Below, piece after piece: positions 13,405 to 30,635 of a stretch of 64,000 nt of DNA. The stretch's first letter is position 1, and the number at the start of each line of letters is the position of its first letter. The DNA lies in the NCBI GenBank assembly GCA_963817525.1, contig CAWFOU010000007.1:1056001-1120000 (forward strand). Reading direction: 5' to 3'. This DNA is from an uncultured archaeon. GTDB lineage: Archaea; Thermoproteota; Nitrososphaeria; Nitrososphaerales; Gagatemarchaeaceae. The notes below the pieces were generated by a model. It was not told the origin of the DNA, searched no databases, and was given only the letters and a program-made list of their open reading frames with translations. The position numbers and the translations under genes were made by a program.

Positions 13405-14190
13405 TCAGACGTTCGCAGGGAGCCTGCGCATGGAGCGCAGGTTCAGGTATAGCACCGCCACAGCGATGCACGGGAAGAGGAAGTAGGTGACGTAGTAGAT
13501 CCAGGGCGAGGAAGTCAACACCGCGGCCGCCGGCGCGGCGAGGCTGATGAGCCCCGCCACGGACAGGCAGCACGAAGCGCCCAAGACGATGCCCACTGCA
13601 GGGAGCACGACGAACGCCCTCGCCTTGTTCGTCCCCGTCCGGAGCTTGCCGAGTTCCCTGGTCCTGCCGATGTTGGCGACGACGAGGACGGCGATGACGA
13701 GAGCGACGGCGATGCTGTAGAAGCTCAGCGCCGCAGAGAATATGGGCGGCGCGGTCAGCACGATTATCGGGTTGTACGCGATGTCGAACGCGACGCTCAC
13801 AGGGGACGGCGGGCTGAAGAGGTTCGTCGTGACGAACAATCCGGCCGTGGCCGCGAAGGCGCCTATCCCGTAGTAGGAGGCGAGGATGACGTCGAAGAGG
13901 AAGCCGTAGAGCAACAGGTGTATCGATATGTAGACGACGAACGCCGCCGCGCCGAGGGTGGTCCGGATGGACTTTGCGAACTCCCGGGCGGCGTCGCGAA
14001 ACGGGATGGCGAGCAGGAAGAAGACCGCGGCGACCCAGAAGACGGCCGGGCCGGCGACCTCGTCCACGTTGAGGGAGACCTCTCCGAGGGAATAGCCTAG
14101 GCCTACCAGCGCCGTGCCCATCACGGCGACGACGAGCGCGGAGATGGCCGGGCCGCGCCTGCTGGCCCTCAGGTGGCTCGCTTCGTCCAT
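13405..14190 (-). CDS. Membrane protein with GASCC motif (paralog of 8920-9711)
   Basis: Same motif set as 8920-9711; start placed at ATG 14190. Confidence 0.75.
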   Translation of the reverse strand: MDEASHLRASRRGPAISALVVAVMGTALVGLGYSLGEVSLNVDEVAGPAVFWVAAVFFLLAIPFRDAAREFAKSIRTTLGAAAFVVYISIHLLLYGFLFDVILASYYGIGAFAATAGLFVTTNLFSPPSPVSVAFDIAYNPIIVLTAPPIFSAALSFYSIAVALVIAVLVVANIGRTRELGKLRTGTNKARAFVVLPAVGIVLGASCCLSVAGLISLAAPAAAVLTSSPWIYYVTYFLFPCIAVAVLYLNLRSMRRLPANV

Positions 14191-14382
14191 GTCTATCGAA
14201 ACCCTTACCGTGTAGACATAAGGCTTTGCGGGCGCCGCGGGCCGAGCGCGACATCGAGGTCTCCCCTGAAATCGATTAAATACGAACGCGCCTGGGAATC
14301 CGACGTGTCTCGGCACGCGGGCGCGTCGTTTGGGAGGGGGCAGAACAGCGTCATCGCCGCCGAGACAAGGAGAGCGTAATCG

Positions 14383-14832
14383 ATGTCATCATCGTCGCTG
14401 GGCACGAGAGGCTTCACCAGGATCATCGTGGCCGTGGATGGCTCAGAGGTCTCCCTCAGGGCCGCCGAGCACGCGACGCGAATCGCCAAGCAGGACGGCG
14501 CTGAGCTGGTCGCCCTCCACGTCGTGCCGGTCCCTCCCTTCGAGGTGAAGGGGGACCTCGCCGATATCTACGCGAGCGCAAGAAGGGACGCGAAGAAGTG
14601 GATGAAGGACGTGGAGGATATTGCGACGAGGAGCGGGATCGGCGTAAAGACAGAGGTAGTCGTCGGCGCGTACTCCGTGGTCGACGCGATTCTGGGATAT
14701 GCGGAGACGGTCAAGGCTGACCTCATCGTCACGGGGACTCGGGGGACGACTCCCTCGAGGAGGATGCTCGTCGGGAGCGTGGCCGACGGATTGGTCGAGT
14801 ACGCCGCATGCGCCGTCCTCGTCATACGCTGA
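14383..14832 (+). CDS. Universal stress protein (copy A)
   Basis: IIVAVDGS...ADLIVTGTRG-x9-GSV (ATP-binding G-x2-G-x9-GS motif)...CAVLVIR. Confidence 0.92.
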   Translation: MSSSSLGTRGFTRIIVAVDGSEVSLRAAEHATRIAKQDGAELVALHVVPVPPFEVKGDLADIYASARRDAKKWMKDVEDIATRSGIGVKTEVVVGAYSVVDAILGYAETVKADLIVTGTRGTTPSRRMLVGSVADGLVEYAACAVLVIR

Positions 14833-14856
14833 GCAGGGTCCGGATAGCGCTCCAAC

Positions 14857-16475
14857 TTGGCAGTAGCTAGGCTAGTCAGGGTGAGGCTGGAAGCGCCCAG
14901 GGGCGATGTGGGGGTGCTCCTCGCGGAGCTCATAAAATTCGCGGAGTTCCACCCCTCGAGGAGCCAGGGGATGGTGCAGGACATCGGCATACTCCTCCTG
15001 GCCTCGGAGGCCCAGGACATCTACACCAAGGCCGGCGACCTGCTCAGCAGCAAGAGCGGGGTGAGGACCGCGGAGGGCAAGAAGAAGGAGGTGGAGAGGT
15101 TCGAAGCCCACGACATCGAAGGCCTGCTAAAAGTGCTGGAGGAATACCTCGGCACGATCGAGGGGAACCTGTCGCTCTTCAAGGAAGAGAAGGACAAGCT
15201 CGGGGTCACCGAGGTACTCCTCGCCATCCAAGAGGCCTCGCTGATGGTGTTCACCGACCTGCAGAGGATATTCGTCTACCCCCTCGACGGAGGGAGGCTG
15301 AGGCTCGAGGGGTTCGTCCCCGCGCACTCTCTCGGGTCGTTCAGAAACTCCCTGGGCAGCTACCTGGTCTCCGAGGAGCCGGTCAAGACGCAGGGCAAGG
15401 AGGTGGCCTACGTCCCGACCCTCCTCGTGAACCCTCGGCTCGTCTCGGTGTTCGAGAGCATAACCCTCATGCGAGGCCTCCCTCGATACGGGGAGGTCGA
15501 CCCAACGCCCATCCTCGCGTTCGTCTTCCCCTTCTTCTTCGGAATAATGTTCGCCGACGTGGGCCACGGGATTGCCCTCCTCGCCCTCGGCCTGTACCTG
15601 GTCTACCGGACCGCCTACAAGTCTTGGGGGAAGCAGATCATCGTCTTGAGCTTCTCCACGGCCCTTTTCGGCTTCATCAGGGGGTCGTTCTTCGGCGTCG
15701 TGTTCACCTCGCCCCTGGAAGAGTTTCGTCAAGCTCCCGCAAGGCCATCACCGCGGGTTTCACTCTCTCCTCGATCCCGTTCCTCTTGGAGGTCGCGATA
15801 GCGATAGGCACCTTCCACCTCGCGAGCGCGTACGCCATCGCCTTCGTCAACCAGGAGAGGGCCGGAAACTACCTGGACGCCTTCCTCGACAGGCTGCCTA
15901 CCGTCGTGCTGTACTGCTTCCTCGTGCCGCTCGGCCTCGCCGCGGCCGGGACCATCCTCGACCTCGGCGCCCTCTTCACGAGCAGCGCGCCCACGCCCCT
16001 CTTCAACGACCTTCTCGGGCTGGACATCCCGGTCTCCGCGACCGCGCGCCTCTGCGTCCCTGTCGTCTTGGGCGCGCTGCTAGTGCTCGTCGCGGGGGAG
16101 CCCATTCGCGAATACCTGCCCACCCGGAAGTGGAGGAGCGCGGTCAGGGGGCTGGGCGCGGGACTTCTGCAAGGGGTGGCGAAGCCCTTCGAGTTCTTCG
16201 TGAACACCCTGAGCTATGTCAGGCTCGGAGTCCTGCTGATCACGACCACGCTGCTGGGGAGCCTGGTCGCGGGCGTCCTGTCGTACGGCGTCGTCGGCAT
16301 AGTCCTGGCGGTCTTCCTCAACATAGCCGTGATGAGCCTGGAGGGCCTGATCGTCTACCTGCAAGACATGAGGCTGCAGCTCTACGAGTGGCTCTCGCAG
16401 TTCTACGCAGGGACGGGTACGCCGTTCACGCCCCTCGTCTCCGGCGGAAGCCACTTCAGCGCAAGCTGGACTTGA
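14857..16475 (+). CDS. A/V-type ATPase subunit I (a)-like protein, copy A, with two +1 indels near 15720-15742
   Basis: PRYGEVDPTP, FFGIMFADVGHG, NTLSYVRL, QDMRLQLYEW..FY.G.G; ORFs 14857-15801 and 15624-16475 join; the intact copy is at 23078-24691. Confidence 0.85.
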
Positions 16476-16552
16476 CTCCCCGACGCTCTTAGTTCTGGGA
16501 ATCGTGTTCCCCGTTTAAGTAGAAGGGGGCGTCCGAAGGTGCGAAGCTCGCG

Positions 16553-17344
16553 TTGCAATCAACCAGAGGCTCACAGAGTGGCGAGAAGGCGCTGGACGGC
16601 AAGGTCGCCCTGATAACCGGGGCGGGTTCGGGTGTGGGCAGGGCGACTGCCAACCTCTTCGCCAAGAACGGGAGCTCCGTGATCGTGGTCGACCTCCTCC
16701 CCGACAGGGTCAACCAGGTCGTCGCCGAGATAAAGTCTGCCGGAGGCAGCGCGACGGGGGTGGTGATCGACCTCTCTATAGGCACGGAGGTCGACCGGAT
16801 GGTCGACGAGGCCTTGAGGTCCTCCGGGAGGGTGGACATACTGCACAACAACGCGGGCATAATGGACGGCGTCAGGCCCGTGGCCGACACGCCCGACGAG
16901 GTCTGGGAGAAGGTGATGAACATCAACATCAACGCCCCCTTCCGGGCGAGCAGGCGGGTCATCCCCTCTATGCTCAAGCAGGGGGGAGGGGTGATAGTCA
17001 ACACCGCCTCGGTGGCGGGTCTCTTCGGGGGAGTGGCGGGCGCCGCGTACACGGTCTCGAAGCACGCGCTCATCGGGCTGACCCGAAACACGGCCGCCTT
17101 CTACGGCTCAAAGGGGATCAGGTGCAACGCCATGGTGCTGGGAGCGGTGAACACGAACATAGGGGTCGGGAGCGCGCAGCCCAACCCGCTCGGGATGGAG
17201 CAGCTCGGCAAGGTAGCTTCCCTTGTCCCCAGGGTTGCCGAGCCCAGCGAGATAGCCGAGCTAGCGCTGTTCCTGGCCTCGTCCAGGTCGAGCTACGTCA
17301 ACGGCTCGTGCATAGTGATCGACGGCGGCTGGACGGTCTTCTAG
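16553..17344 (+). CDS. Short-chain dehydrogenase/reductase
   Basis: TGAGSGVG, NNAG, YTVSK, VIDGG. Confidence 0.92.
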   Translation: MQSTRGSQSGEKALDGKVALITGAGSGVGRATANLFAKNGSSVIVVDLLPDRVNQVVAEIKSAGGSATGVVIDLSIGTEVDRMVDEALRSSGRVDILHNNAGIMDGVRPVADTPDEVWEKVMNININAPFRASRRVIPSMLKQGGGVIVNTASVAGLFGGVAGAAYTVSKHALIGLTRNTAAFYGSKGIRCNAMVLGAVNTNIGVGSAQPNPLGMEQLGKVASLVPRVAEPSEIAELALFLASSRSSYVNGSCIVIDGGWTVF

Positions 17345-17417
17345 CAGAGTGCGCCTTCTGAAGAAGGCGTCCGGTCGCCGCAGATCGTAAGATGGCATCG
17401 ATGCCGGTGACGTTGGA

Positions 17418-18095
17418 ATGACCAAAATGGGAGCTGACCTCGACGGGATGTCCGTCCGCGAGGTGGAGGTCGAGTCCTACTCGGTCACTCTTCCGGGAAT
17501 ACTGACGCTGCCGAAAAGGAAACCGAAGGCGGTCGTCGTCTTTGCTCACGGGAGCGGCAGCAGCCGCCTAAGTCCGAGAAACGCCTACGTCTCGACGGCG
17601 CTCAACGAGGCTGGCTTCGGAACCCTGCTCTTTGACCTGCTCACGAGCAAGGAGGACGCGGTCTACGACAACCGCTTCGATATCGACCTCCTCGCGGAGC
17701 GCTTGACCGCCGCGACAGCATGGCTGCGCGACCAGCAGGGCGTGGCGGGTCTCGACGTGGGGTACTTTGGCGCCAGCACGGGCGCGGCGGCTGCTCTCCA
17801 GGCATCGGTCAGACGAAAGGAGGTCAGAGCGGTGGTCTGTCGGGGTGGGAGGCCCGACCTCGCTTGGGACTACCTCGACCGCGTGGAGGCTCCCACGCTC
17901 CTCATAGTCGGAGGGAGCGACGACAAGGCCGTCCTAGAGTTCAACCAGCGGGCCCTCGGACGGCTGAATCTCGGTGGCGAAAAGAGGCACAACGACCTCG
18001 TCATAATCCCAGGTGCGACCCACCTCTTCGAAGAGCCGGGAGCGCTCGAGGAGGTGGCAAGGGTGGCCACAAACTGGTTCCTGAAGTTCCTCTGA
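17418..18095 (+). CDS. Dienelactone hydrolase-like alpha/beta hydrolase
   Basis: FAHGSGSSRLSPRN, GYFGASTG, RGGRPDL, GATHLFEEPG. Confidence 0.88.
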   Translation: MTKMGADLDGMSVREVEVESYSVTLPGILTLPKRKPKAVVVFAHGSGSSRLSPRNAYVSTALNEAGFGTLLFDLLTSKEDAVYDNRFDIDLLAERLTAATAWLRDQQGVAGLDVGYFGASTGAAAALQASVRRKEVRAVVCRGGRPDLAWDYLDRVEAPTLLIVGGSDDKAVLEFNQRALGRLNLGGEKRHNDLVIIPGATHLFEEPGALEEVARVATNWFLKFL

Positions 18096-18207
18096 GAGGG
18101 ACCACGAGCCCCGTCTCCCTCCCCGCACTATCCGTCAGGGTTGCCAAGACTGAGAATCGTAGCCCTGGTTTTTAAGAGCGCGAGTAATCAAGGCGTCGCA
18201 GAGCCAG

Positions 18208-18723
18208 ATGTCACTTATCGATGCTCCCGTGAGAGGCGTCATGACCAAGGATGTGAAGACGATTGAGGCGACCAAGCCGCTTGCAGACTGCGTCAAGATC
18301 ATGGGGGACGCCAACATCGGGAGCGTGGTGGTAGTGGGGAAGGACAAGACGCCCGTCGGGATATTCACGGAGAGGGATCTGGTGAGGAAGATGGCCGAGA
18401 AAGGCCACGGAATCCTCGCACTCCCTATGGCGCAGACCATGAGCAAACCCTTGACGATCATCTCCCCGGTCGCGACGATCTGGGACGCGCTCACCCTCAT
18501 GGGGAGGGCTGGCATAAGGCGGCTCCCCGTCGTGGAGAACGGCCGCCTGGTCGGGATACTTACCGAGAGGGACGTCTTCCACCTCATTCTGGCTCGCCAG
18601 AGCCTCCTGCTCGAGTCCGTGTCCGAGTCTCTCCCGACGGCCACGAGGGAGCAGCTGAAGGACATGACCCAACGGTTCGGACTCGGGAGCCCTCCCGGCC
18701 GGGCGAGCGGAGCCGGCGAGTAA
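18208..18723 (+). CDS. CBS domain protein
   Basis: Two CBS repeats: IGSVVV..GIFTERDL and IRRLPVV..GILTERD. Confidence 0.9.
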   Translation: MSLIDAPVRGVMTKDVKTIEATKPLADCVKIMGDANIGSVVVVGKDKTPVGIFTERDLVRKMAEKGHGILALPMAQTMSKPLTIISPVATIWDALTLMGRAGIRRLPVVENGRLVGILTERDVFHLILARQSLLLESVSESLPTATREQLKDMTQRFGLGSPPGRASGAGE

Positions 18724-18766
18724 TCTCATCTAGAGGCCCGGGTCTGCCCATAGCGGGGATTCAGGA

Positions 18767-20623
18767 ATGGGGTTGGGCAGCGTCTTCCATACGGACCTTA
18801 CGCTCCTCCACGCGCCCTCGGTGTACGACTTTAGGAAGAGGACCATCCTGCAAGGCCCCATCGCCGACGCCGTCCCTTCCACCGACGAGTTCGAGATGTA
18901 CCCGGTCGGGCTGACCAGCATCGCGTCCTACCTCGGCAAGAACCAGTACAACGTCCGGATCGTGAACCTGGCCTACAGGATGCTCCACGACCCGTCCTAC
19001 GACGTGGAGAGGAGGCTCGGGAAACTGCACTCCACGGTCTTCGGCATCGACCTCCACTGGCTCCCCCACGCGAACGGCGCCCTGGCGATAGCCGAGCTGA
19101 CCAAGCGGCTTCATCCCGAGAGCTACGTGCTCATGGGTGGCCTCTCGTCGAGCTACTACCACGAGGAGCTGGTCAGGTACCCCTACGTCGACTTTGTCCT
19201 CCGCGGCGACTCCACCGAGGAGCCCTGCCGGCAGCTCCTCCAGGCCCTCCGGGAGAACAAGCCGCTCGGGTCGGTCGAGAACCTCACCTGGAAGCGGCCC
19301 GACGGGCAGGTGGTGGTCAACCCGCTCACCTTCGTCCCTGGCGACCTCGACTACGTCGACGTCCCGGACTACCTCTACGCGATCAAGACGATGCTGAAGT
19401 ACCGGAGCCTTGACGACCTGGCCCCCTACCTGAGGTGGCTGAAGTACCCGACGACCATGCTCCTCAACTCGAGGGGGTGCACGCTCGACTGCTCGACCTG
19501 CGGAGGCTCCCGCTCGGCCTACAAGGAGATCTGCGAGAGGTCTTGGCCCGCCTTCCGGTCACCGGAGAAGCTTGTCTCGGACATAAGGTCGATCCGGTCC
19601 TTCTCGAACAGCCCCATCATGATGATCCACGACCCGCGGCTGGGTGGACTCTCGCGCGCCGAGAGGTTCTTCGCGCTGCTGAAGAAGGAGAGGGTGCCGA
19701 ACGAGCTGGTCTTCGAGCTCTTCTATCCCGCGGGGGACGAGTACTTCCAGATGGTCAGGGAGAGCGTCAAGAGGTGGAGCGTGGAGGTCACGATCGAGAC
19801 GCCCGAGGAGAGGCTGCGCAAGCTCGACTGCCTCAAGTTCCCCGTCCCCAACAGCAGGATCGAGGAGACCATAGGGAGCGCGCTCTCCCACGGGTGCGAC
19901 AAGCTGGACCTGTTCTTCATGGTGGGCATCCCGCACCAGACCTACGCGGACGTCATGGCCACCATCCCCTACTGCGAGCACCTGATCGAGCGGTTCGACA
20001 AGGACAAGCGGCTCGAGTTCTTCATATCCCCGATGGGGCCGTTCCTCGACCCGGGCTGCGGGGCGTTCGAGGACCCGAAGTACGGGTACAAGCACTTCTA
20101 CACCACTCTCGAGGAGCACAGGCAGGCGCTCCTCCAGCCCACGTGGAAATCCATCCTTTCATACGAGACCGACGCGATGACGAGGCAGCAGATCATCGAC
20201 GCGAGCTACGACGTGGCCTCGGCCATGAACGAGCTGAAGCACAGGTACGGGCTGATCGACGAAGAGACGTACGCGCACGTGAGCCAGCACCAGAAGGCGG
20301 CGAGGGAGGCGATGGAGGGGATCGAGCAGGCCCTCCTCCTCCCCGAGGACCAGAGGCAGGGCGCCCTGCTGGCGATCCAGGAGAAGGTGCGGGAGGCGAA
20401 CGCCGACACGCTCTTCAGCAAGAAGGAGCTCGACTGGCACGCCAACAACGGCCTCCGGACCAGCGCGACGCTGCTGCGGACGGCCGCACTAGGCCTCGGG
20501 GAGGAGGTCGACCACAGCGTCCACCGTCTCTTCGGGAGATACGACACCGACGTCTACAAGGGGGAGCGGATACCCCTTCAGGCGATGACCATGGACGCCT
20601 TCAAGCAGCTGAACGCCTCGTGA
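18767..20623 (+). CDS. B12-binding radical SAM protein (TIGR04190/Ta0216-like)
   Basis: LLHAPSVYDFR, FEMYP.G, GIDLHWLPHA.G, RGCTLDCSTCGG (CxxxCxxC), PFLDPG. Confidence 0.85.
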   Translation: MGLGSVFHTDLTLLHAPSVYDFRKRTILQGPIADAVPSTDEFEMYPVGLTSIASYLGKNQYNVRIVNLAYRMLHDPSYDVERRLGKLHSTVFGIDLHWLPHANGALAIAELTKRLHPESYVLMGGLSSSYYHEELVRYPYVDFVLRGDSTEEPCRQLLQALRENKPLGSVENLTWKRPDGQVVVNPLTFVPGDLDYVDVPDYLYAIKTMLKYRSLDDLAPYLRWLKYPTTMLLNSRGCTLDCSTCGGSRSAYKEICERSWPAFRSPEKLVSDIRSIRSFSNSPIMMIHDPRLGGLSRAERFFALLKKERVPNELVFELFYPAGDEYFQMVRESVKRWSVEVTIETPEERLRKLDCLKFPVPNSRIEETIGSALSHGCDKLDLFFMVGIPHQTYADVMATIPYCEHLIERFDKDKRLEFFISPMGPFLDPGCGAFEDPKYGYKHFYTTLEEHRQALLQPTWKSILSYETDAMTRQQIIDASYDVASAMNELKHRYGLIDEETYAHVSQHQKAAREAMEGIEQALLLPEDQRQGALLAIQEKVREANADTLFSKKELDWHANNGLRTSATLLRTAALGLGEEVDHSVHRLFGRYDTDVYKGERIPLQAMTMDAFKQLNAS

Positions 20624-20724
20624 CTCGTCCGGGCTCACCCTCAGGTTCGCGTCCGGGCAGTTCTCAGGCCTGGGAATCAGCTTCACATTTTTAAGCGGCG
20701 CCCGACTTTCTCGGCCGACCCGAT

Positions 20725-21780
20725 GTGGGGCGAGCCACTGACTCGGCGGCAGGGTTCTCGGGCGGGGAGAAGGCAAGGATCGCCCTGCTATACGGCGCCA
20801 TAATCGTCGTCACGGCGTTCGGGTTTCTGGCCTCCTTCGCCATCGGGCGCGTCGCCATCGTGCTGGCCGGGCTCGGGCTCATCTCCTACGTCCTGGGCCT
20901 CCGGCACGCGGTCGACGCCGACCACATAGCGGCCATCGACAACACCACCCGGAAGCTGCTGCAGGAGAAGAAGCGGCCCCTCGCGGTCGGAACATGGTTC
21001 TCACTCGGCCACTCCACCATAGTCGTCGGGCTCATCGTCGCCTTCGTGCTCGCCGCGCGCGCCTTCAGCTCGAGCGTCCCCACCCTCCAGGCCGACGGCA
21101 ACATAATCGGGACCCTGATATCCGGAGGCTTCCTCTGGATCATAGGCCTAGTAAACGTCGTCATAGTGGTCGGGGTCTACCAGGTCTTCAGGAAGATGAG
21201 GGAAGGGAAGCTCGACCAGAGCGAGCTCGACGACCTCATGGAAAGACGGGGCTTCATGAACCGCTACTTCCACAGGTTCTTCAAGATAGTGAACGAGCCC
21301 TGGCAGATCTACCCGATAGGGGTGCTGTTCGGCCTCGGCTTCGACACCGCCACGGAGGTGGCGCTGATTGCGATAAGCGTGGGCGTCGGGGTCTCGGCCA
21401 ACGTGCCGCTGTATTACGTGCTCGTGCTGCCGCTGATGTTCACCTGCGGGATGGTCCTAGTGGACACGACGGACGGGGTCGCCATGAGGATGGCCTACGG
21501 CTGGGCTTTCCTCAATCCCCTCAGGAAGGTCTACTACAACCTCACGGTGACGATAATATCGATAATGGTGGCTTGGGCCATCGGGTCGATAGAGCTCCTC
21601 CAAGTCCTCTCTTCGGAGCTCAATCTCTCCGGAGGGTTCTGGTTGTGGGTGGACGCCCTTAACTTCGAGACCATCGGCTACGGCATCGTGGGGCTCTTCG
21701 TCGTCTCGTGGATGGCTTCGATGGCTTATTGGCGGCTCGGCAGGTTCGAGCAGAAGTATTCTGGCGTCATTGCGGGCTAG
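20725..21780 (+). CDS. hoxN: High-affinity Ni/Co permease (HoxN/HupN/NixA, NiCoT)
   Basis: Signature RHAVDADHI, FSLGHST, GLGFDTATE. Confidence 0.93.
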   Translation: MGRATDSAAGFSGGEKARIALLYGAIIVVTAFGFLASFAIGRVAIVLAGLGLISYVLGLRHAVDADHIAAIDNTTRKLLQEKKRPLAVGTWFSLGHSTIVVGLIVAFVLAARAFSSSVPTLQADGNIIGTLISGGFLWIIGLVNVVIVVGVYQVFRKMREGKLDQSELDDLMERRGFMNRYFHRFFKIVNEPWQIYPIGVLFGLGFDTATEVALIAISVGVGVSANVPLYYVLVLPLMFTCGMVLVDTTDGVAMRMAYGWAFLNPLRKVYYNLTVTIISIMVAWAIGSIELLQVLSSELNLSGGFWLWVDALNFETIGYGIVGLFVVSWMASMAYWRLGRFEQKYSGVIAG

Positions 21781-21798
21781 GCCGCGGCGCTGACGCCT

Positions 21799-22230
21799 CT
21801 AGCCTTCTTTCAATCGCGTGACCTGACCCTGATGGCCCAGCCTCTCGGCGACGACCGGATTCGCCAAGACGTAGACAGACACCTCTCCGTCCTTCATCTC
21901 GACGCGGAGGCTGCTGAAGACGCTCCTGTACACCGCGTGCCCCTTCCCCTTGCCCGTGGCGACCTTCCGCTCGACGGTCAGCACCCCTTGGCTCACCAGC
22001 TGCTTGACCTTCCTGTAGCATGTGCTTACCGGGATTCGCTGGTCGGAGCAGATTTCTTCGACCGTCCTTCCGACCGAGACCGTCGAGCTCACTATCTTCC
22101 TCGAACACTCATCAGTGAGCGCGTCCATCAGCGCGGTCGCTGACCCGACGCTGTCGACTGGAACGGCGGCCCCTGCGTCCTTGGGTTCGGACGGTCTCCC
22201 CGTCGTGATCACGCTAGGCTGGACCGTCAC
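21799..22230 (-). CDS. Winged-HTH regulator (ArsR-like, archaeal); paralog of 43130-43633
   Basis: TVEEIC...IP.S.CYR.V..L...G, then YRS.F. Confidence 0.75.
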   Translation of the reverse strand: MTVQPSVITTGRPSEPKDAGAAVPVDSVGSATALMDALTDECSRKIVSSTVSVGRTVEEICSDQRIPVSTCYRKVKQLVSQGVLTVERKVATGKGKGHAVYRSVFSSLRVEMKDGEVSVYVLANPVVAERLGHQGQVTRLKEG

Positions 22231-22380
22231 TCGAGCTTCCCCGGCCCAACCGGTTCGATGCCGAAACCAATCCGCGAGACGTTGTGCGCGACAATCCTAG
22301 TGGGATTCCAGAAGCTCCCCACGTGATATCAGGGTTCTACCGGACATATCCGGCATCCCGTAAATACGGTCGCTTCCCGC

Positions 22381-23067
22381 GTGCGAGGCATGCGCCGTGT
22401 CGTCATGGAGCTTTCTGAGCAGGGGATGGAGAAGATGGCGGGCTTCACGCTGGAGCTCTCGAGGGATATCGAGTCATTGGAGGTCTTGCACCGCCTCAGG
22501 CACGGGACCGAAGGGTCGGCCATCGTCTGCAGGATCAAGCCGAAGGACAAAGCGGCTAAGATGGGCGAGCTGAAGTTCAAGTTCAAGAAGTTCGAGGTGC
22601 TCTCTGAGGAGGCGGACGGGTTTCTCGTCTACCTAGAGGCGGAGGCCGCTCGTCTGCCCCCGCTAGGCCCGAACCCTCCAAAAATCTTCCTCAACCTGCC
22701 CATCGAGGTCAGAGGAGGGAGTCGGAGGGTGACCATCCTCGGCGACTCTGCGGAGTTGAGGAAGCTGTTCCGATGGCTCGGTAAGAGGGGTGTCAACTTC
22801 GAAGTCCTATCGAACTCTGATGCCAGGTCCTCCCCCGAGTCTGCCCTCGGGGGCCTCTCGGGGCAGCAAAAGAAGGCGTTGTTGGCGGCCTACGCCCACG
22901 GGTACTACGAAATTCCCAGAAGGTCCCACCTGGACGAGATAGCCAGGGAGCAGAAGGTGAACAAGTCCACCTTCGCGGAGCACCTGCTGAAAGCGGAGAA
23001 CCGCCTCATAGGGAGCATCCTGGCGGAAGAGCTCAATCACCCGAACCCGGAAGGCCGCAAGGTCTAG
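22381..23067 (+). CDS. HTH_10 (bacterio-opsin activator-type) regulator
   Basis: C-terminal LSGQQ..AL..AY..GYYE.PR...L.EIA...KST..EHL.KAE. Confidence 0.85.
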   Translation: MRGMRRVVMELSEQGMEKMAGFTLELSRDIESLEVLHRLRHGTEGSAIVCRIKPKDKAAKMGELKFKFKKFEVLSEEADGFLVYLEAEAARLPPLGPNPPKIFLNLPIEVRGGSRRVTILGDSAELRKLFRWLGKRGVNFEVLSNSDARSSPESALGGLSGQQKKALLAAYAHGYYEIPRRSHLDEIAREQKVNKSTFAEHLLKAENRLIGSILAEELNHPNPEGRKV

Positions 23068-23077
23068 AGCTTGGGGC

Positions 23078-24691
23078 TCAAGTCCACTTGGCGCTGAAGT
23101 GGGCGCCGCCGGAGATGAGGGGCATGAACGGCGTCCCTGTCCCGGCGTAGAACTGTGGAAGCCACTCGTATAGCTGCAGCCTCATGTCCTGCAGGTAGAC
23201 GATCAGGCCCTCCAGGCTCATCACGGCGACGTTGAGGAAGACCGCCAGGATTATGCCGACGACGCCATACGACATCACGCCCGCGACGAGGCTCCCCAGG
23301 AGGGTCGTCGTTATCAACAGGACCCCGAGCCTGACGTAGCTGAGGGTGTTGGTGAAGAACTCGAACGGCTTCGCCACCCCTCCGAGGAGGCCCGCGCCGA
23401 GCCCCCTGACGGCGCTCTTCCACTTGCGGGTCGACAGGTAGTCGCGTATCGGCTCCCCCACGATGAGGACGGCCAGCGCGACCAGGACGACCGGAAGGGA
23501 GACGCGCGCGGTCTCGTAGACGGGGATGTCAATCCCGAGGAGGCCGTTGAAAAGGGGCGTAGGCGCGCTGCTGGTAAAGAGCACGCCAAAGTCGAGGGCC
23601 GTCCCGGCCACGGCGAGCCCCAGGGGCACCAGGAACACGTAGAGCACCACCGTGGGCAGCCTGTCCAGGAGTGCATCCAGATAGTTTCCGGCCCTCTCCT
23701 GGTTGATGAAGCCTATGGCGTAGGCGCTCGCGAGGTGGAAGGCGCCTATGGCTATCGCGACCTCGAGCAGGAACGGGATGGAAGAGAGGGTGAATGCCGC
23801 CGTGATCTCTTGGGGGAGCTTGACGACGCTCTCCAGGGGCGAGGTGAACACCACCCCGAAGATCAACCCCCTGACGAAGCCGAAGAGGGCCGCCGAGAAG
23901 CTCAGGACGAGGAGCTGCTTGCCCCACGACTTGTAGGCCGTCCGATAGATGAGGTACAGGCCCACCGCGAGGAGCGCGATCCCGTGCCCCACGTCGGCGA
24001 ACATTATGCCGAAGAAGAACGGGAAGACGAACGCGAGGATGGGGGTGGGGTCGACCTCCCCATACCGGGGGAGGCCCCGCATGAGGGTTATGCTCTCGAA
24101 GACGGAGACCAGCCGGGGGTTCACCAGGAGCGTCGGGATGTACGCCACCTCTTTGCCCTGCGTCTTGACGGGCTCGGCCGAGACAACGTAGCTGCCCAGG
24201 GATGCCCTGAACGACTCGAGTGAGTGCGCGGGGAGGAACCCCTCGAACGCCAGCCTCCCTCCATCGAGAGGGTACACGAAGATCCTCTGCAGGTCAGTGA
24301 ACACCATCAGCGACGCCTCCGGGATTGCCAGCAGGACCTCGGTGACCCCCAGCTTGTCCTTCTCCTGCTTGAAGAGCGACAGGTTCCTCTCTATGGTGCC
24401 GAGGTAGTCCTGCAGCCCTTTGAGCAGCCCTTCGATGTCGTGGGCCTCGAACCTCTCCACCTCCTTCTTCTTGCCCTCTGCGGCCCTCACTCCCCCCTTG
24501 CTCAGCAGGTCGCCGGCCCTGGTGTAGATGTCCTGCGCCTCCGACGCAAGCAGGAGTATCCCTATGTCCTGCACCATTCCCTTGCTCCTCGAGGGATGGA
24601 ACTCGGTGAACTTGATGAGCTTCGCGAGCATCACGCCGACCTCCGTCCTGGGCGCTTCCAGCCTCGCCCTGACGAGTCTAGCTACTGCCAA
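23078..24691 (-). CDS. A/V-type ATPase subunit I (a)-like protein, copy B, intact, 537 aa
   Basis: Same motifs as copy A; essential Arg kept in SYVRL; short soluble N-terminal domain. Confidence 0.88.
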   Translation of the reverse strand: MAVARLVRARLEAPRTEVGVMLAKLIKFTEFHPSRSKGMVQDIGILLLASEAQDIYTRAGDLLSKGGVRAAEGKKKEVERFEAHDIEGLLKGLQDYLGTIERNLSLFKQEKDKLGVTEVLLAIPEASLMVFTDLQRIFVYPLDGGRLAFEGFLPAHSLESFRASLGSYVVSAEPVKTQGKEVAYIPTLLVNPRLVSVFESITLMRGLPRYGEVDPTPILAFVFPFFFGIMFADVGHGIALLAVGLYLIYRTAYKSWGKQLLVLSFSAALFGFVRGLIFGVVFTSPLESVVKLPQEITAAFTLSSIPFLLEVAIAIGAFHLASAYAIGFINQERAGNYLDALLDRLPTVVLYVFLVPLGLAVAGTALDFGVLFTSSAPTPLFNGLLGIDIPVYETARVSLPVVLVALAVLIVGEPIRDYLSTRKWKSAVRGLGAGLLGGVAKPFEFFTNTLSYVRLGVLLITTTLLGSLVAGVMSYGVVGIILAVFLNVAVMSLEGLIVYLQDMRLQLYEWLPQFYAGTGTPFMPLISGGAHFSAKWT

Positions 24692-24710
24692 GTTGGAGCG
24701 CTATCCGGAC

Positions 24711-25160
24711 TCAGCGTATCACAAGGACCGCGCAGGCCGCGTACTCGACGAGGCCGGCCGCCACGCTCCCCACGAGCATCCTCCTCGAGGGGGTCGTCCC
24801 CCGGGTCCCCGTCACAATTAGGTCGGCCTTCACCGTCTCCGCGTAGCCGAGTATCGCGTCGACGACGGAGTAGGCGCCCACGACGACCTCGGTCTTCACC
24901 CCGATCCCGCTCCTCGTCGCTATCTCCTCGACGTCCTTCATCCACTTCTTCGCGTCCCTCCTCGCGCTCGCGTAGATCTCTGCAAGGTCGCCCTTCACCT
25001 CGAACGGAGGGACGGGCACGACGTGGAGCGCGACCAGCTCCGCCCCGTCCTGCCTTGCGATGCGCGCCGCGTGCTCGGCCGCCCGAAGAGAGACCTCCGA
25101 CCCGTCCACGGCCACGATTAGTCTGGTGAAGCCTCTCTTGGTCGACGAGGACGATGACAT
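24711..25160 (-). CDS. Universal stress protein (copy B)
   Basis: About 9 of 149 aa differ from copy A (counted by eye). Confidence 0.92.
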   Translation of the reverse strand: MSSSSSTKRGFTRLIVAVDGSEVSLRAAEHAARIARQDGAELVALHVVPVPPFEVKGDLAEIYASARRDAKKWMKDVEEIATRSGIGVKTEVVVGAYSVVDAILGYAETVKADLIVTGTRGTTPSRRMLVGSVAAGLVEYAACAVLVIR

Positions 25161-25274
25161 GGAGCTACTCCTGCCGTCTCGCGGCGTCGACCGCGCTGGT
25201 CGATCGTCTTTCTTCCCGCGCCCACACCTGCGCAGACACGTCCGGTTCTCTGGCGCTTTCGTATTTAATCAATT

Positions 25275-26434
25275 GAGGCATGGGCATAATTCTATCGTTG
25301 ATTGACGCGTTAGCAAAATCTGATTGAGATAGGATGCTAAGGGTCTCCGTCCCGGGAGACCTGTTGGCACAATGAATCCCGGTAGGAGACTTCCTAGCAC
25401 GATGCTACTCTCTGAGTCGTTCCTTATTGGGATTCTACGTCTAATCGGTTTGATTCCTTGGCCAACACATTCCAAGAGACGTGCTGGGAGGCCATACATC
25501 TACCCGCCTCTCGTGATGCTCAGATGCTTCATCGTGAGGGTATGGATGAGGATACCGAGCAACAACGCGCTCCACTCGTTCTTCCTCCTCTCCACAGAGA
25601 ACCCGTACAACGCGAGGATCATGATGGCGTGTGGTCTCGATAGGATTCCAGACAGGAGGACGTTCGACAGGAGGCTCAAGAACATCTCAGCCGATGGGAG
25701 CGACGAGGACCTCAGGCCGCGGATAGATGCGATGGGTCGCCTGTTCGTCGCAGAGGAGTTGATCGACCCATACATCGCGTCAGTGGACAGCACGCTCCTC
25801 AAGGCCAAGGGCCACGTATGGCACAGGAGCAGCATGGAGAAGGGTTTCGTTTACTCCGGGACAGACACGGACGCGCGGTGGGGCAAGAGCAGGACAAAGG
25901 GATGGGTCTTCGGATACAAGCTTCACATCGTGAGCAGCACGGGCTCGCTCATCGTTCCTATCTCAGCCGATTTCACCACAGCCAATATCCCTGACAGCAA
26001 GGTCTACGGGAGGGTGACCGCGTCCCTGCGCGGCGTCAGGTATGTGGATGGCGACCAGGGCTACGACGTCGACGACCTCTACGAGCTGAGCAGGGAGAGA
26101 GGGTTCGACCTCGTCTGTCCCATAGCGAGGTATGAGAACACGCATCCAGATAGGGTCGAGCTCGTGTTCTTCTACGAGTCTGAGCTCGGGCAGCTGGTAT
26201 ACTCGTGGAGGAGCAAATCGGTAGAGCCTCTCTTCGAGCAAATCAAAGATGTCTTCGGGATCGACCCTCTCCCGGTGAGAGGATTCGACAAGACGAAGAT
26301 GTCTGTCCTTCTATCGGTTCTGCTGTATCAGACGATGGTATACTACAATCATCTGACAGGGAGATCGCTGAGGGCGCTCAAACACATGCTCGGGAGTTGA
26401 GAGACCCTACACGGGACAATTATGCCCATGCCTC
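25275..26434 (+). mobile_element. Complete insertion sequence (DDE, IS5/IS982/IS4-like), 1,160 bp
   Basis: TIRs GAGGCATGGGCATAATT (25275-25291) and AATTATGCCCATGCCTC (26418-26434); TSD AATCAATT at 25267-25274 and 26435-26442; single transposase ORF. Confidence 0.93.
25372..26400 (+). CDS. DDE transposase (DDE_Tnp_1-like)
   Basis: GRP, SVDST, D.DARWG...GWVFGYKLH, GDQGYD, R.KSVEPLF..IK. Confidence 0.9.
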   Translation: MNPGRRLPSTMLLSESFLIGILRLIGLIPWPTHSKRRAGRPYIYPPLVMLRCFIVRVWMRIPSNNALHSFFLLSTENPYNARIMMACGLDRIPDRRTFDRRLKNISADGSDEDLRPRIDAMGRLFVAEELIDPYIASVDSTLLKAKGHVWHRSSMEKGFVYSGTDTDARWGKSRTKGWVFGYKLHIVSSTGSLIVPISADFTTANIPDSKVYGRVTASLRGVRYVDGDQGYDVDDLYELSRERGFDLVCPIARYENTHPDRVELVFFYESELGQLVYSWRSKSVEPLFEQIKDVFGIDPLPVRGFDKTKMSVLLSVLLYQTMVYYNHLTGRSLRALKHMLGS

Positions 26435-26574
26435 AATCAATTAAGGGACTTCTCAGAGTTGAGAATCACCAGCGCGCATAAATAGGAAGGCCGACTCAAT
26501 TGACCTTGGGAAGCCTTCAATCCTGAGAGCCCGCGAAAGAAGGTCTCTGTGCGCAGAGCGAGTGGACGACAGCG

Positions 26575-27741
26575 ATGCAAGTAACTAGGCGCGACTTTCT
26601 AAAGCTGGCAGGGGTCCTCGGCGCGGGCTTTGTCATAACAGCATATTCTCCAGGCATAAAGAAGGTCTTCGCCCAGGTGCAGTCCCAGAACGTGCACCTC
26701 ATTTGGATTCACCTCGGGTCCGACTCTGGTTGCTCGATATCGATGCTCCAGGCCTACAACCCTGACCTCATATCCTCCGTGGTCGATCTGGGACTTCAAG
26801 TGGACTTTTGGCAGGTTCTGATGACTCCCGACTACCAGATTGGGGACCTGGGGTGGATCACCGCCGGATACACGACGGAGGACACTTCGGAGCTCCCGAT
26901 CATCAACGCCGCGTTCGGGAGCGCACCGGTGGACGTGCTCGTCGTCGAGGGTACGCCGCAAGTCGCCACTCCGCCCGGCGGCGTGGCCGGAGGCTACTGC
27001 ACGGTCGGGCAGTACAACGGCCAGGACGTCACGGGGTACGAGCTGCTCCAGAAGCTCGCGGCCAAGGCCAGCTATGTGGTCGCGGTGGGCCAGTGCTCCT
27101 CATTCGGCGGCATCCCCGCGGGCAAGGGGAACCTCACGGGCGGCACCTCCGTGGTCAACGCCTTGAAGATGGCAGGGGTGAGCACGGCCAACCCTGTGAT
27201 CAACATGCCCGGATGTCCCGCCAATCCCGACTGGACCCTCGTCACGCTGGCGTCGGTCATCCAGGGCTTCAAACCCGACCTCGACAGCCTGGGACGCCCC
27301 ACCGCGTTCTACAGCGAGACCATCCACGACCATTGTCCGCGGAGGGGAGCCTACGACAAGGGCGACTTTGCGACGGTCTTCGACGACCCTTACGGCTGCC
27401 TATGGAAGCTGGGGTGCAAGGGGCCCATTACGTACGGGGCCTGCTCGCTGACCCACTGGAACTCGGGGACGGGGACGTGCACCCTCGCCGGCCCGATGTG
27501 CTGGGGGTGCATGAACGAGAGCTTTCCCGACCCGCCGACTAGCCCGTTCTTCGACGAGATCGAGCTCACGCCAGCCTTCTTCGGGGTCAACGTCAACGAC
27601 ATAGCGATAGGCGCCGCGGCGGCCACGGCCGGGGTCATAGCGGTCCACGCGGTAGCGCGGGAGCTGCGGGGGGACCGCAAGAAGGAGGACGCGGGCGCCC
27701 CGGCGGGCCACCAGGGGCAGAGCGAGGGCGGTGGCAGTTGA
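26575..27741 (+). CDS. Group 1 [NiFe]-hydrogenase small subunit, Tat-exported, with C-terminal membrane anchor
   Basis: TRRDFLK; VVEG; VGQCSSFGG; PGCP; IHDHCPR; GCLWKLGCKGP; C..WN...C..AG..C.GC; C-terminal TM with His. Confidence 0.92.
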   Translation: MQVTRRDFLKLAGVLGAGFVITAYSPGIKKVFAQVQSQNVHLIWIHLGSDSGCSISMLQAYNPDLISSVVDLGLQVDFWQVLMTPDYQIGDLGWITAGYTTEDTSELPIINAAFGSAPVDVLVVEGTPQVATPPGGVAGGYCTVGQYNGQDVTGYELLQKLAAKASYVVAVGQCSSFGGIPAGKGNLTGGTSVVNALKMAGVSTANPVINMPGCPANPDWTLVTLASVIQGFKPDLDSLGRPTAFYSETIHDHCPRRGAYDKGDFATVFDDPYGCLWKLGCKGPITYGACSLTHWNSGTGTCTLAGPMCWGCMNESFPDPPTSPFFDEIELTPAFFGVNVNDIAIGAAAATAGVIAVHAVARELRGDRKKEDAGAPAGHQGQSEGGGS

Positions 27742-29329
27742 CCAGGATAGTCGTCGACCCCGTCGCTAGGATAGAGGGGCACATGAAGGTGGAGGTCGAG
27801 GTGGACGACACAACCAACCTCGTGACCTCGGGCAAGTGCAGCGCCGTCCTCTACAGGGGTTTCGAGAACATAGTCCTGGGGAGGGACCCGAGGGACGCGG
27901 CTCCGATACTCTCAGCGATATGCGGGGTCTGCCACAGCGACCACCACATAAACTCCGTCAGGGCGGTCGAGAACGCGGCCGGGATGCTCTCCTACCCGAG
28001 CAGCTACAGCACGGAGCAGACGAGCATCCCAAAGAACGCCGTCCTGAGCAGGAACGTGATACTGGGAGCGGACTGGGCGTATTCGCACGCAGCGCACCTT
28101 CTGGTCCTCGCGGGGCCTGACTATGCGCTCTACAACCTCCTCCAGGTCCTGAGCCAGTCCGTGGTAATCACCGACTATGCGAGCCTCCTAAAATGGGCCG
28201 TGATACCCGCGCAGGCGTACATGCATCAGCTCATCACCCTCTGGGGCGGGAAGACCCCCACCAGAGGGGGTCGATCCCGGGAGGGAACCCGGTCAGGCCT
28301 ACGGCCGACGTCATCGAGCAGTCGAAGAACAAGGTCTCGAACCTCAGGACCATCACCGACGTCGTCGCCCCCGTGATCTGGAACTTCCTCACCGCGGACG
28401 CCATCCAGCTCTCCCAGCTCGGGCCAGGCCCCGGAAACTTCATCTCGCTCGGGGCCTTCCCCGACCCGACCACCTCCTCAGGAACGTCGAGCATGCCTTT
28501 GACCCTCCCGAGGGGAGTCCTGGTCTATCCGAGCACGACGCCCATCCCATTCGACCCGACCCAGATCACCGAGACCGTCCCCTACTCTTGGTACAACCAG
28601 CCGCTCTCCGTCCCCGTGATCGGAGAGCAGCCGCCCGTCCCCGACCAGACGAACCCGAACGCCTACTCGTGGGCCAAGTCGCCGCGATACGCAGGCAACC
28701 CGACCGAGAGCGGCCCGCTCGCGCGCGAATACGTCTCCGGCATATACCCGAAGCTGGGGCAGATAGTGAACAGCATAGTCCCCTCAGTGCCGGGGTTTCC
28801 CCTCAACCCCAAGGGGTCGGTCTTCGACAGGCTCGTGACGAGGGCGATAGAGCTGGTGGCTCTCGTGGGCTCGAACAACACGACGAAGAACCTCATGGCG
28901 CTAGGACAGCCGCTCAACCTCTCCCTCGTGGACGTCCTGACCGCCCTCGGCCTGCCGACGAACGGCCTCATCGAGACCTGGCTGGACGGGATGGACGTCG
29001 GTGAACCGGCCTACACTCCCTACACCGAACCCACGTCGGGCCAGGGGATGGGGCTCTGGGAGGCTCCACGCGGATCTTTGTTCCACTGGCTGAGCATAGA
29101 CTCTAGCAAAGTGAGCGACTACCAGGTCGTGGCGCCCACGACGTGGAACGTCTCCCCCAACGGCCCTCTCGAGGGCGCGCTGGTGGGGACCCCGGTCGGG
29201 ACAACGGGGACCAACCAGGACCTGAGGCAGACCGCGTGGGTGGTGAGGTCGTTCGACCTGTGCCTTGCGTGCACCGTCCACACCATCGACGCACGCGGGA
29301 ACGAGCGCTACGTCAAGATCAGGCCGTGA
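27738..29329 (+). CDS. [NiFe]-hydrogenase large subunit (one missing C in the C-run at 28255-28259)
   Basis: DPVARIEGH, RGFE, L1 AICGVC, GGKTPH after frame repair, YSWAKSPRY, EAPRG, APTTWN, L2 RSFDLCLACTVH plus a cleavable tail. Confidence 0.9.
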
Positions 29330-29339
29330 TCGTGCGCCC

Positions 29340-30092
29340 ATGCCCGAGAAGACCGTAAGGACGATGCGGCACGACCTTGCGGTGAGGCTCGTCCATTGGG
29401 CGATAGTCGTCGAGGGCGCCTTCCTGCTCCTGAGCGGGGCCCAGCTCAACGGCCTCCTCCCGTTCATCACGTGGGATCTCTACTCGTACCACATCATCGT
29501 GGGGTTCGCGTTCATAGGGACCGCGGTCATATTCTTCTACGTCGTCCTCGCCGAGCACGACTACCACTGGTTCGGGCTGCGACGGATCCCGTACTCGATC
29601 CGCTTCATTCTCGCGGAGGCTGGGTACTGGTTCAGGCTCAGGCCGAAGGTAGACGAGGCCAAGATAAAGTTCGACGCGCAGAAGGGCCAATACGTAGAGA
29701 AGCTCATACCGAGCGTCATCGTGGTCTGGTGGCTCTACATTGCGATGGGTGTCATCCTCACGCTGACCGGCCTCGCGGACGCCTTCCCGAAGACCTTCGC
29801 CTGGGAATACACGCTCTTGAACCCCATAGGCCTTGCGCTCACCGGGGTCGACGGCCTGCCGTGGATACTCGCGGTGCACAGGCTGGTCGCCGTGCTGCTG
29901 GTCTGCACCGTGGCGCTGCACCTCTACGCGTCGATCTTGTACAGGCTCGTCGGCTCCATCTTCATAGGATACAGGAACGAGCCAGTCGCGGAGAGTGAAA
30001 AGCCCCCTGCAGGACCTCCGCTCGTCGCGGCCTTTCACGCCCCCAAGGAACCCCTGGCCAAGACCCCAGACGACGAAGGACGTCACGCCTGA
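29340..30092 (+). CDS. Hydrogenase b-type cytochrome subunit
   Basis: Four TM segments with His in RLVHW, YSYHI, LAVHR and ALHLY; follows the large subunit. Confidence 0.85.
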   Translation: MPEKTVRTMRHDLAVRLVHWAIVVEGAFLLLSGAQLNGLLPFITWDLYSYHIIVGFAFIGTAVIFFYVVLAEHDYHWFGLRRIPYSIRFILAEAGYWFRLRPKVDEAKIKFDAQKGQYVEKLIPSVIVVWWLYIAMGVILTLTGLADAFPKTFAWEYTLLNPIGLALTGVDGLPWILAVHRLVAVLLVCTVALHLYASILYRLVGSIFIGYRNEPVAESEKPPAGPPLVAAFHAPKEPLAKTPDDEGRHA

Positions 30093-30121
30093 CGACGCAT
30101 GACCGCGGATCTACGAGGCGG

Positions 30122-30619
30122 GTGGGAGAGTTGCAAAGGGGGGTCGTGATAATAGGTCTCGGCAACGTGTTCCTGCACGACGACGCGGTAGGCGTCAGGG
30201 TCGCCGAGGCGCTGACTGATGTGGCGCCGAACCTGAAAGCCTCCCAAAGCGTCCATGTCGAGAAATACGAGGAGATGGACCTGTCCATCCTGCAGGAGAT
30301 GAAGGACGCGTCCAGGCTGATAATCATAGACTCGATCAAGTCGGGAACGGACCCGGGAACTGTCTCGTTATTCCAACTCGGAGAAAGGCCAGGCGAACTG
30401 GAGAGCATCCCCAGCCTCCACGAGCTCGACCTCTCCGACATGGTGTACCTGGCACAAACGCTCGGGATGCTGCACTGTCCGGTCCTCATAGTGGGAGTCG
30501 AGCCGGAAGACCTCAGCATCGGGGAGGGGCTCTCGGCAAGGGTTGAAGCGGCAATACCTCGCGCCGTGACGGCCGTCCTCTCGAGCCTGGGCGAACAAGG
30601 AGGCAGATGCGGAGAATGA
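30122..30619 (+). CDS. Hydrogenase maturation endopeptidase (HyaD/HybD family)
   Basis: IGLGN..L.DDAVG, IIIDS, SLHE, GVEP...GEGLS. Confidence 0.9.
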   Translation: MGELQRGVVIIGLGNVFLHDDAVGVRVAEALTDVAPNLKASQSVHVEKYEEMDLSILQEMKDASRLIIIDSIKSGTDPGTVSLFQLGERPGELESIPSLHELDLSDMVYLAQTLGMLHCPVLIVGVEPEDLSIGEGLSARVEAAIPRAVTAVLSSLGEQGGRCGE

Positions 30620-30635
30620 GGAGGGCGCGACGGCG

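Follow-up and report, generated by a model that had tools for sequence, protein, structure and literature searches.

In this article, I discuss a pair of genes that occurs twice in a 64,000-nucleotide stretch of DNA (hereafter the window) from an uncultured archaeon of the family Gagatemarchaeaceae (assembly GCA_963817525.1, contig CAWFOU010000007.1, positions 1,056,001 to 1,120,000 of the forward strand), the first gene encoding a universal stress protein (USP) and the second a shortened subunit I of the rotary A/V-ATPase. My reading, which I hold at slightly less than even confidence, is that the pair is a two-gene operon and an accessory module of the rotary A/V-ATPase, with the short protein serving the resident rotor as an alternative stator or proton-channel subunit under the regulation of the USP. 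I favor it because the operon is conserved, a contact between the two proteins is modelled, the ring-facing residues are intact, the genes are under selection and the genome has a single c-subunit gene. To my knowledge, the usual view of bacterial and archaeal rotary ATPases gives them a single stator a-subunit, with no regulated swapping of parts, and the module is unusual in being a conserved, selected and truncated second a-subunit that always comes with its own ATP-motif USP, in genomes with one c gene. It is also rare, ecologically focused and small enough for work in vitro.

Conservation and ancestry of the gene pair

The family alignment was run against 185,579 species genomes, and 79 loci were kept. 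Among these, a USP gene lies directly upstream of the short subunit I gene, on the same strand and 12-49 nt away, in all 18 short-type loci that could be scored (the 3' fragments L078 and L131 are left out of this count), and beside none of the 59 full-length or other subunit I loci (E<=1e-4). Relatives of the genome gave the same arrangement in nine of nine short-type loci that include the 5' end (leaving out L029, also a 3' fragment), although the two sets overlap, the same species representatives having been reached twice. The pairing extends to the two deepest short members, at 30-34% subunit identity, and the worry voiced in a preliminary description of this DNA, that the pairing might not be conserved, is answered by a USP upstream in every scorable short-type locus. 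Only these two genes are common to all contexts and there is no third shared gene, the other clusters of flanking open reading frames (ORFs) appearing in at most 5 of 17 contexts if antisense ORFs within the pair are set aside. The pair lies outside an ATPase operon in 17 of the 18 named loci, as it does in the window, and at L071 (10141-13604) it stands 2.5-4 kb from genes for c, C/AC39 and a full-length subunit I; these three genes are arranged divergently, apart from the other ATPase subunits in the stretch. One 702-aa metagenome protein (P0025) joins USP and subunit through the 9-residue linker EKSPEGALK, a single case, which may be natural or may reflect a sequencing error or the loss of a stop codon from a contig of low coverage.

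In 40 relatives, short-type genes (48-70% identity, about 535-550 aa) turned up in 10 of the 22 other genomes of the genus. The 18 genomes of other genera had none, yielding only matches of 28-36% in frames of about 630-735 aa. More widely, a profile search of 1.84 billion cluster representatives returned 8557 proteins at E<=0.001, and among the best 150 of these, 12 aligned end to end (533-565 aa, forming about 12 clusters at 50% identity), the rest being fragments, or full-length forms whose match does not begin until about position 80-190 of the profile. A word-based search gave more than 110 short relatives among the matches listed, at 41-100% identity. The named carriers in the scan of species genomes are soil, peat and groundwater metagenome-assembled genomes (MAGs) titled Thaumarchaeota, Nitrososphaerota or Nitrososphaerales, five titled Thermoplasmata, and "uncultured archaeon". 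Searches of the literature, in main texts, for a USP with subunit I/V_ATPase_I and for a second archaeal atpI gave no description of the pair; in the portions covered, the main text of PMC6863869 contains none of the terms "atpI", "subunit I", "truncated" or "paralog", and PMC10640624 does not contain "universal stress".

The genome also carries a complete A/V-ATPase operon 250 kb from the module (G000:C7:797.9-806.7 kb), in the order K-E-C-F-A-B-D-(110 aa)-I, that is, genes for c, E, C/AC39, F, A, B and D, a 110-aa ORF without a Pfam match, and a subunit I of 690 aa. Because this full operon with its own subunit I exists, the short gene is an extra paralog, and the alternative anticipated in the preliminary description, that the genome has no other atpI and the gene in question is the housekeeping copy moved elsewhere, is rejected. 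The genome has one ATP-synt_C gene, that of the c subunit at G000:C7:797947-798289, and ten Usp domains, and five further carrier genomes each have one full-length subunit I too. Within the window, none of the 67 ORFs scanned with Pfam is a further A/V-ATPase subunit, just as the preliminary description had claimed for the whole 64 kb.

Full-length subunits I of the order come in two kinds, type X, which is resident in the genus and occurs also, at 38-42% identity, in G030 and G038, from two of the order's other families that were searched, and type Y, found in most other families. In a tree of 66 rows that includes 18 distinct short sequences from other genomes and leaves out the window's left copy (IQ-TREE, LG+C20+F+G4 with posterior mean site frequencies (PMSF), quick search, support from the Shimodaira-Hasegawa-like approximate likelihood-ratio test (SH-aLRT)), the short clade is a single branch (99) that groups with type Y (97), within or beside the type Y A-type subunits, and type X falls elsewhere, among bacterial and Methanomethylicia sequences (95). 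The Thermoplasmata copies are nested within the Nitrososphaerota short clade. Forcing the short sequences together with type X, a grouping named after the tree had been seen, costs 44.9 units of log-likelihood (lnL), with p-AU 0.0011 in the approximately unbiased (AU) test (28-row subset, LG+G4). The comparison with the housekeeping atpI proposed in the preliminary description thus sets the short clade apart from the resident type X, and a recent duplication of the resident subunit I is rejected by both the tree and the AU test. According to the portions covered of Sheridan et al. (2023; PMC10640624), topsoil lineages of an acid-soil thaumarchaeal family carry an acquired V-type ATPase tolerant of acid, and the majority of subsoil lineages of that family the ancestral A-type. 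Since types X and Y match this published picture, the short gene is, judging from its place in the tree, a descendant of the ancestral thaumarchaeal A-type subunit I and not of the resident V-type.

The short subunit and its USP partner

The intact short subunit I, on the right side of the window, scores 78.9 bits against PF01496 (cut-off 30.7), the two fragments of the left copy scoring 62.5 and 26.0 bits, and its best sequence match in the PDB is Enterococcus hirae NtpI (7.2e-27). The AlphaFold2 (AF2) model of the right subunit, built from a 22-row alignment (mean predicted local distance difference test (pLDDT) 74, predicted template modelling score (pTM) 0.55), begins with a small alpha/beta domain bearing a short helical hairpin and continues into membrane helices, among them a long tilted pair (424-473 and 477-508), and all 47 Foldseek matches to it at E<=0.001 are subunit a chains of V/A-ATPases. 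The short soluble N-domain pointed out in the preliminary description is real: the DPT motif, where the membrane domain begins, stands at residue 214 versus 341-352 in full-length relatives, and the alignment with these holds over the first ~95 residues and resumes from about residue 108, across an internal gap of about 135 aa. In the parts of Kishikawa et al. (2020; PMC7367684) covered here, the arm of subunit I is described as two globular lobes linked by a coiled coil, the distal lobe binding the second EG stalk and, in isolated Vo, touching subunit d and so blocking rotation. By position and by this description, the deleted segment would correspond to the distal lobe and most of the coiled coil.

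In what remains of the protein, all 35 columns with at least 85% conservation among 47 full-length subunits keep the same consensus in the short clade, including D233, S451, R454, Q501, R504, L505 and E509, and 53 of the 74 columns with at least 90% conservation in type Y persist there. R454, the essential Arg of the SYVRL motif that had been noticed at the outset, is present with R504, E509 and Q501 in 19/19 short rows, and the four are likewise found in 47/47 full-length rows, except Q501 in 46/47. Three other positions differ from the parental clade. E occupies position 276 in 26/26 type Y rows and in 0/19 short rows; H occupies position 462 in 26/26 type Y rows but in 2/19 short rows, the other 17 having T, N, S or C; and at position 506, H is found in 26/26 type Y rows but in 7 of the 19 short rows, the others having Q (11 rows) or M (1 row). 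The replacement of canonical His residues reported in the preliminary description therefore stands for positions 462 and 506 against the parental type Y, but not for the Q of LQDMRL, which is normal and present in 46/47 full-length rows.

The deepest short members, L081 and L091, keep H462 and H506 and have D or N at 276, so that the deletion and the pairing with the USP came first and the residue changes later. Similar changes are seen in type X (11 rows), with A in seven and E in two rows at 276, S at 462 and I, L or M at 506, such that H462 and H506 are missing from 11/11 rows and E276 from 9/11. Since type X also does without E276, H462 and H506, the losses alone are no argument against transport, and their occurrence in both the short crown group and type X may represent a parallel change tied to life at low pH.

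Turning to the first gene of the pair, both USPs of the window score well above the PF00582 cut-off (102.7 and 104.5 bits versus 24, E about 1e-29) and differ from each other at exactly 9 of 149 residues, the approximate number given in the preliminary description. Across 20 partner USPs, G118, G121 and G131 are invariant, S132 is nearly so and D19 is kept, and the pattern G-x2-G-x9-G-(S/T), which I take to be the ATP-binding motif of this USP class, places the module USP by sequence in the ATP-motif class. Partner USPs are better conserved than the subunits at the same loci (62-79% versus 45-70% identity).

When the right USP and subunit residues 1-190, each supplied as an alignment, are co-folded, as the preliminary description had suggested, the interface score ipSAE reaches 0.78 versus 0.02 for the best control (0.78, 0.78 and 0.76 in three runs, with contacts 100% concordant between runs and partner pLDDT of at least 84); the mark used for this score is attained by 116 of 157 solved complexes and by 2 of 215 mismatched pairs. 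The predicted interface joins subunit residues 40-60 and 128-135 with USP residues 60-68, 92-98 and 101-109, and the model thus supports a predicted binding of the USP to the short N-domain of the subunit. I know of no solved USP-subunit a complex that the model could be recalling.

Two converging copies in the window

The preliminary description had claimed two converging copies, and these are indeed present as two arms, 14270-16480 (+) and 23073-25274 (-), which a repeat search of the window resolves into four long inverted repeat pairs, 84-87% complementary in pieces, and which in a global alignment are identical at 1868 of 2201 aligned bases (84.9%) with five indels. Transcription of both points inward. 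Each arm starts about 110 nt 5' of the USP gene, has a spacer of 19-24 nt between USP and subunit I genes and ends 5 nt past the subunit I stop, and the arm sequence is present only twice in the genome. The features are:

14270 to 14382, plus strand: left arm upstream region, TATA-like GATTAAATACGAA at about 14275-14287; homologous to 25161-25274, putative promoter
14383 to 14832, plus strand: left USP, 149 aa, ATP-type motif G-x2-G-x9-G-S (PF00582, 8.8e-30)
14857 to 16475, plus strand: left short subunit I, frameshifted as assembled (ORFs 14857-15801 and 15624-16475)
16481 to 23072, no strand: central 6.6-kb block, outside the module (Pfam: SDR, dienelactone hydrolase, CBS pair, B12-binding radical SAM, NicO nickel transporter, HTH, HTH_10)
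23078 to 24691, minus strand: right short subunit I, intact 537-aa ORF with TTG start (PF01496, 78.9 bits; short clade in the tree)
24711 to 25160, minus strand: right USP, 149 aa (PF00582, 3.2e-29)
25161 to 25274, minus strand: right arm upstream region, same TATA-like element as the left, by homology to the left arm
25275 to 26434, plus strand: insertion sequence (IS) element with DDE_Tnp_1 transposase at 25372-26400 (PF01609, 4.3e-20)

The element GATTAAATACGAA sits about 100 nt 5' of the USP ATG in both arms and, among nine upstream regions aligned and judged by eye, recurs in two further regions and as a variant in a third. The claim that each copy has a promoter thus stands as far as a TATA-like element in both arms, read by eye, makes these upstream elements putative promoters. 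Some genes of the central block recur beside the module, in related genomes only.

Selection on the two copies was estimated by the Nei-Gojobori method from the rates of nonsynonymous (dN) and synonymous (dS) change between left and right. The USP genes (149 codons, 9 amino acid changes) give dS 0.69 and dN/dS 0.051, the subunit genes before the break in the left copy (287 codons, 32 changes) dS 0.48 and dN/dS 0.126, and after the break (241 codons, 34 changes) dS 0.48 and dN/dS 0.179. By this measure the copies are old and both have been under purifying selection for most of their separation, which bears out the earlier suggestion of selection on both.

The expectation of a 537-aa subunit I in each copy holds for the right copy, but the left is split by two 1-nt insertions, an extra A at 15719 and another at 15741, that shift the frame twice and leave ORFs of 314 aa (14857-15801) and 283 aa (15624-16475). 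With both extra bases removed it reads PLESFVKLPQAITAGF, close to PLESVVKLPQEITAAF of the right copy. In a comparison of 13500-26700 with Logan contigs of four runs from one soil study, contigs of runs X1 (15501-15977) and X2 (15664-16081) lack both extra A bases, and further differences from the window, at 13 and 11 positions respectively, mark them as a separate allele of the left copy; a contig of run X4 covers 15719 without the deletion and ends before 15741, and is ambiguous. That the left-arm short-read contigs are left/right chimeras was considered and rejected, in that, of the 32 variant positions listed (59 more lie outside the tally), 12 have the right-copy base, 14 are new, meaning that both arms agree there, and six have a third state. 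A programmed frameshift was set aside, given insertions 22 nt apart and an allele that lacks both and encodes a sequence near that of the right copy. Between a recent mutation of this strain and an assembly error as the cause of the left break, the balance is nearly even.

The broken copy leads to the question of whether the duplication is an assembly artefact, with the alleles of two strains placed in one contig, or the module a decaying relic without function, readings that I regard as very improbable. They can draw on a genome contamination estimate of 8.75%, on the frameshifts in the left copy and, in a run of C, in a hydrogenase gene of the window, and on the two junctions at 14270 (left outer) and 23073 (right inner), for which no bridging contig was found among the contigs listed. 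Against them, contigs of independent runs bridge the left inner junction (X2 record 10, 16320-16655) and lead from the right arm into and across the IS (X1 record 8, 24912-25990, and X4 record 32, 24681-26700), in each case with 0 mismatches, so that the misassembly feared in the preliminary description is not what was found at these junctions. Two module copies, on separate contigs, are also present in G015, another genome of the genus, and neutral decay over a long time is excluded by dN/dS of 0.05-0.18 with dS at about 0.5. Both paralog types exist whole elsewhere, since the proteins P0001 and P0002 are intact, the latter, from a metagenome collection, having 537 aa and being 90-91% identical to the left halves and 85% to the right copy.

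Several side observations belong here. On two contigs of one genome of the genus, L063 and L064, the module copies are mutual sisters in the tree and not sisters of the window's copy, and from the tree it seems that the module duplication probably happened more than once. The hydrogenase gene mentioned above encodes a NiFe large subunit (27738-29329) and is split into overlapping ORFs (27738-28376 and 28193-29329), the frame changing in a run of five C, around 28255-28262, inside the WGGK..PH..PGG region; the split probably stems from an error in the homopolymer consensus and bears on the trust to be placed in indels of the assembly. At L065, in an incomplete genome (G022), the short and the housekeeping subunit I are both broken across several frames containing TGA stops, a sign that this assembly is error-prone in general. 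The preliminary description overlooked the frameshift in the left copy, the different ATPase lineage of the short gene and the adjacent IS. This last element has terminal inverted repeats of about 24 nt (the inverted repeat spans 34 nt at 85% complementarity) and is flanked by the 8-bp direct repeat AATCAATT, a target-site duplication read from the repeat arms; it is single-copy in the genome, was inserted a few bases 5' of the TATA-like box of the right copy and may alter transcription of that copy. The large subunit belongs to a membrane-bound NiFe hydrogenase cluster (26575-31490) with a Tat-signal small subunit, cytochrome b and a HycI protease; 36870-38101 encodes HypA together with a P-loop NTPase of the NUBPL/ParA type, which may be a HypB-like protein for nickel insertion, and a NicO nickel transporter lies between the module arms at 20725-21780.

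Proposed function and known systems

In the scheme that I propose, the second gene would provide an alternative subunit I, the stator subunit a with its proton half-channels, complete in its ring-facing membrane machinery, and the first an ATP-motif USP that would dock on the remaining proximal part of the arm. The short subunit would replace the 690-aa housekeeping subunit at the single c-ring of the cell. Without a distal lobe it would have no hold on the second peripheral stalk and no distal contact from arm to rotor, and whether and how this alternative stator couples or conducts, for instance under energy or acid stress, would depend on the nucleotide state of the bound USP. The sequences show the conserved gene pair, its ancestry, the deletion, the retained residues, the purifying selection and the lone c gene, and a model supports USP binding; how the short subunit assembles with the c-ring, what triggers it physiologically and how it affects coupling are what I infer. 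The preliminary description had offered either an alternative stator or a USP-gated proton path, and the conserved membrane machinery, purifying selection, single c gene and co-fold fit this pair of ideas, with the two roles indistinguishable.

Several findings weigh against an alternative stator. The module is accessory, being carried by 10 of 22 other genomes of the genus and by 0 of 18 of other genera, and here a subunit derived from the A-type must fit a V-type rotor; other MAGs pair the short gene with A-type (type Y) subunits (L070 with L077, L081 with L086), so that, occurring with both types of resident ATPase, it would have to be promiscuous. E276, H462 and H506 are ionisable and invariant in the parental clade, and their loss in the short crown group implies an altered transport path. 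The predicted interface is only mildly enriched in conserved positions (5/17 versus 19/173 elsewhere in the subunit, 8/18 versus 45/131 elsewhere in the USP), and one copy of the two in the window, the left, is frameshifted as assembled.

The occurrence with either type of resident ATPase and the three changed ionisable residues of the crown group could suggest that the pair acts apart from the rotary ATPase, the eight-helix domain forming, for instance, an ion channel or transporter regulated by the USP; to these may be added that 17 of the 18 named loci have the pair away from the ATPase operon. I consider this quite unlikely, for the half-channels of subunit a open onto the c-ring and I know of no conduction by the subunit alone, the ring-facing Arg/Glu/Gln set is invariant in 19/19 rows, and at one locus (L071) the pair does lie beside the c, d and I genes.

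A different arrangement, unlikely in my view but deserving more weight than an independent channel, is that the c-ring is joined by the short subunit, and perhaps by subunit d as well, but minus the A1 head, forming a USP-gated proton conduit or a rotor brake, in effect a hibernation device. Every c-ring-facing residue is kept and a USP with an ATP motif has a predicted seat on the remaining arm, in agreement with this idea, and the deleted distal lobe, by the description in the covered parts of PMC7367684, is what binds the second EG stalk and helps to auto-inhibit free Vo. On the other hand, protons leaking inward would do harm in acid soil, a pure brake needs no full set of conserved channel columns, and reversible loss of the head is, by the introduction of PMC7367684, unreported for prokaryotic V/A-ATPases.

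Returning to the alternative stator, a more specific version can be imagined, which I offer as a speculation and think improbable, in which the USP would be a detachable, nucleotide-sensing stand-in for the deleted distal arm: when bound to ATP it would complete the arm, with the head tethered or the rotor released, and when free of ATP it would leave the short stator uncoupled or locked. This would be a prokaryotic counterpart of the coupling control known only in eukaryotic V-ATPases, and one that arose once in acid-soil archaea and then passed between phyla. If the alternative stator proves true, the module would provide a natural system for learning how the cytoplasmic arm controls proton conductance, give insight into how acid-soil archaea handle proton motive force and pH during starvation, and help explain why three ionisable channel residues are dispensable both in the short clade and in the acid-associated V-type subunit.

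Comparison with known systems begins with the thaumarchaeal A- and V-type operons (Wang et al., 2019, PMC6863869; PMC10640624), of which the resident operon fits the V-type and the short gene groups with the common type; the covered parts of these papers treat whole operons, unlike the stand-alone short gene discussed here. With subunit I of Enterococcus hirae (NtpI, 8wci_P) and of Thermus thermophilus (5gar_N, 6r0z_N), the short subunit shares PF01496, the fold and the ring-facing Arg/Arg/Glu/Gln, but it lacks about 135 aa of the cytoplasmic arm, is encoded outside the operon with a dedicated USP and, in its crown group, has lost the parental E276, H462 and H506. Yeast Vph1p and Stv1p and mammalian a1-a4 are isoforms of the a-subunit that differ in regulation and coupling, and they resemble the present case in that a single set of the other subunits is served by several a-subunit genes; they differ in being full-length and without a USP partner. 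I know of no prokaryotic case of a-subunit isoforms, and the literature searched gave none. A close parallel for the first gene is TeaD, a USP that regulates the ectoine transporter TeaABC in Halomonas elongata: although the partner in the module is a rotary-ATPase stator subunit and its regulation is a proposal, both are small USPs of the ATP-binding class encoded together with a membrane transport protein, on which TeaD acts and on which the module USP would act.

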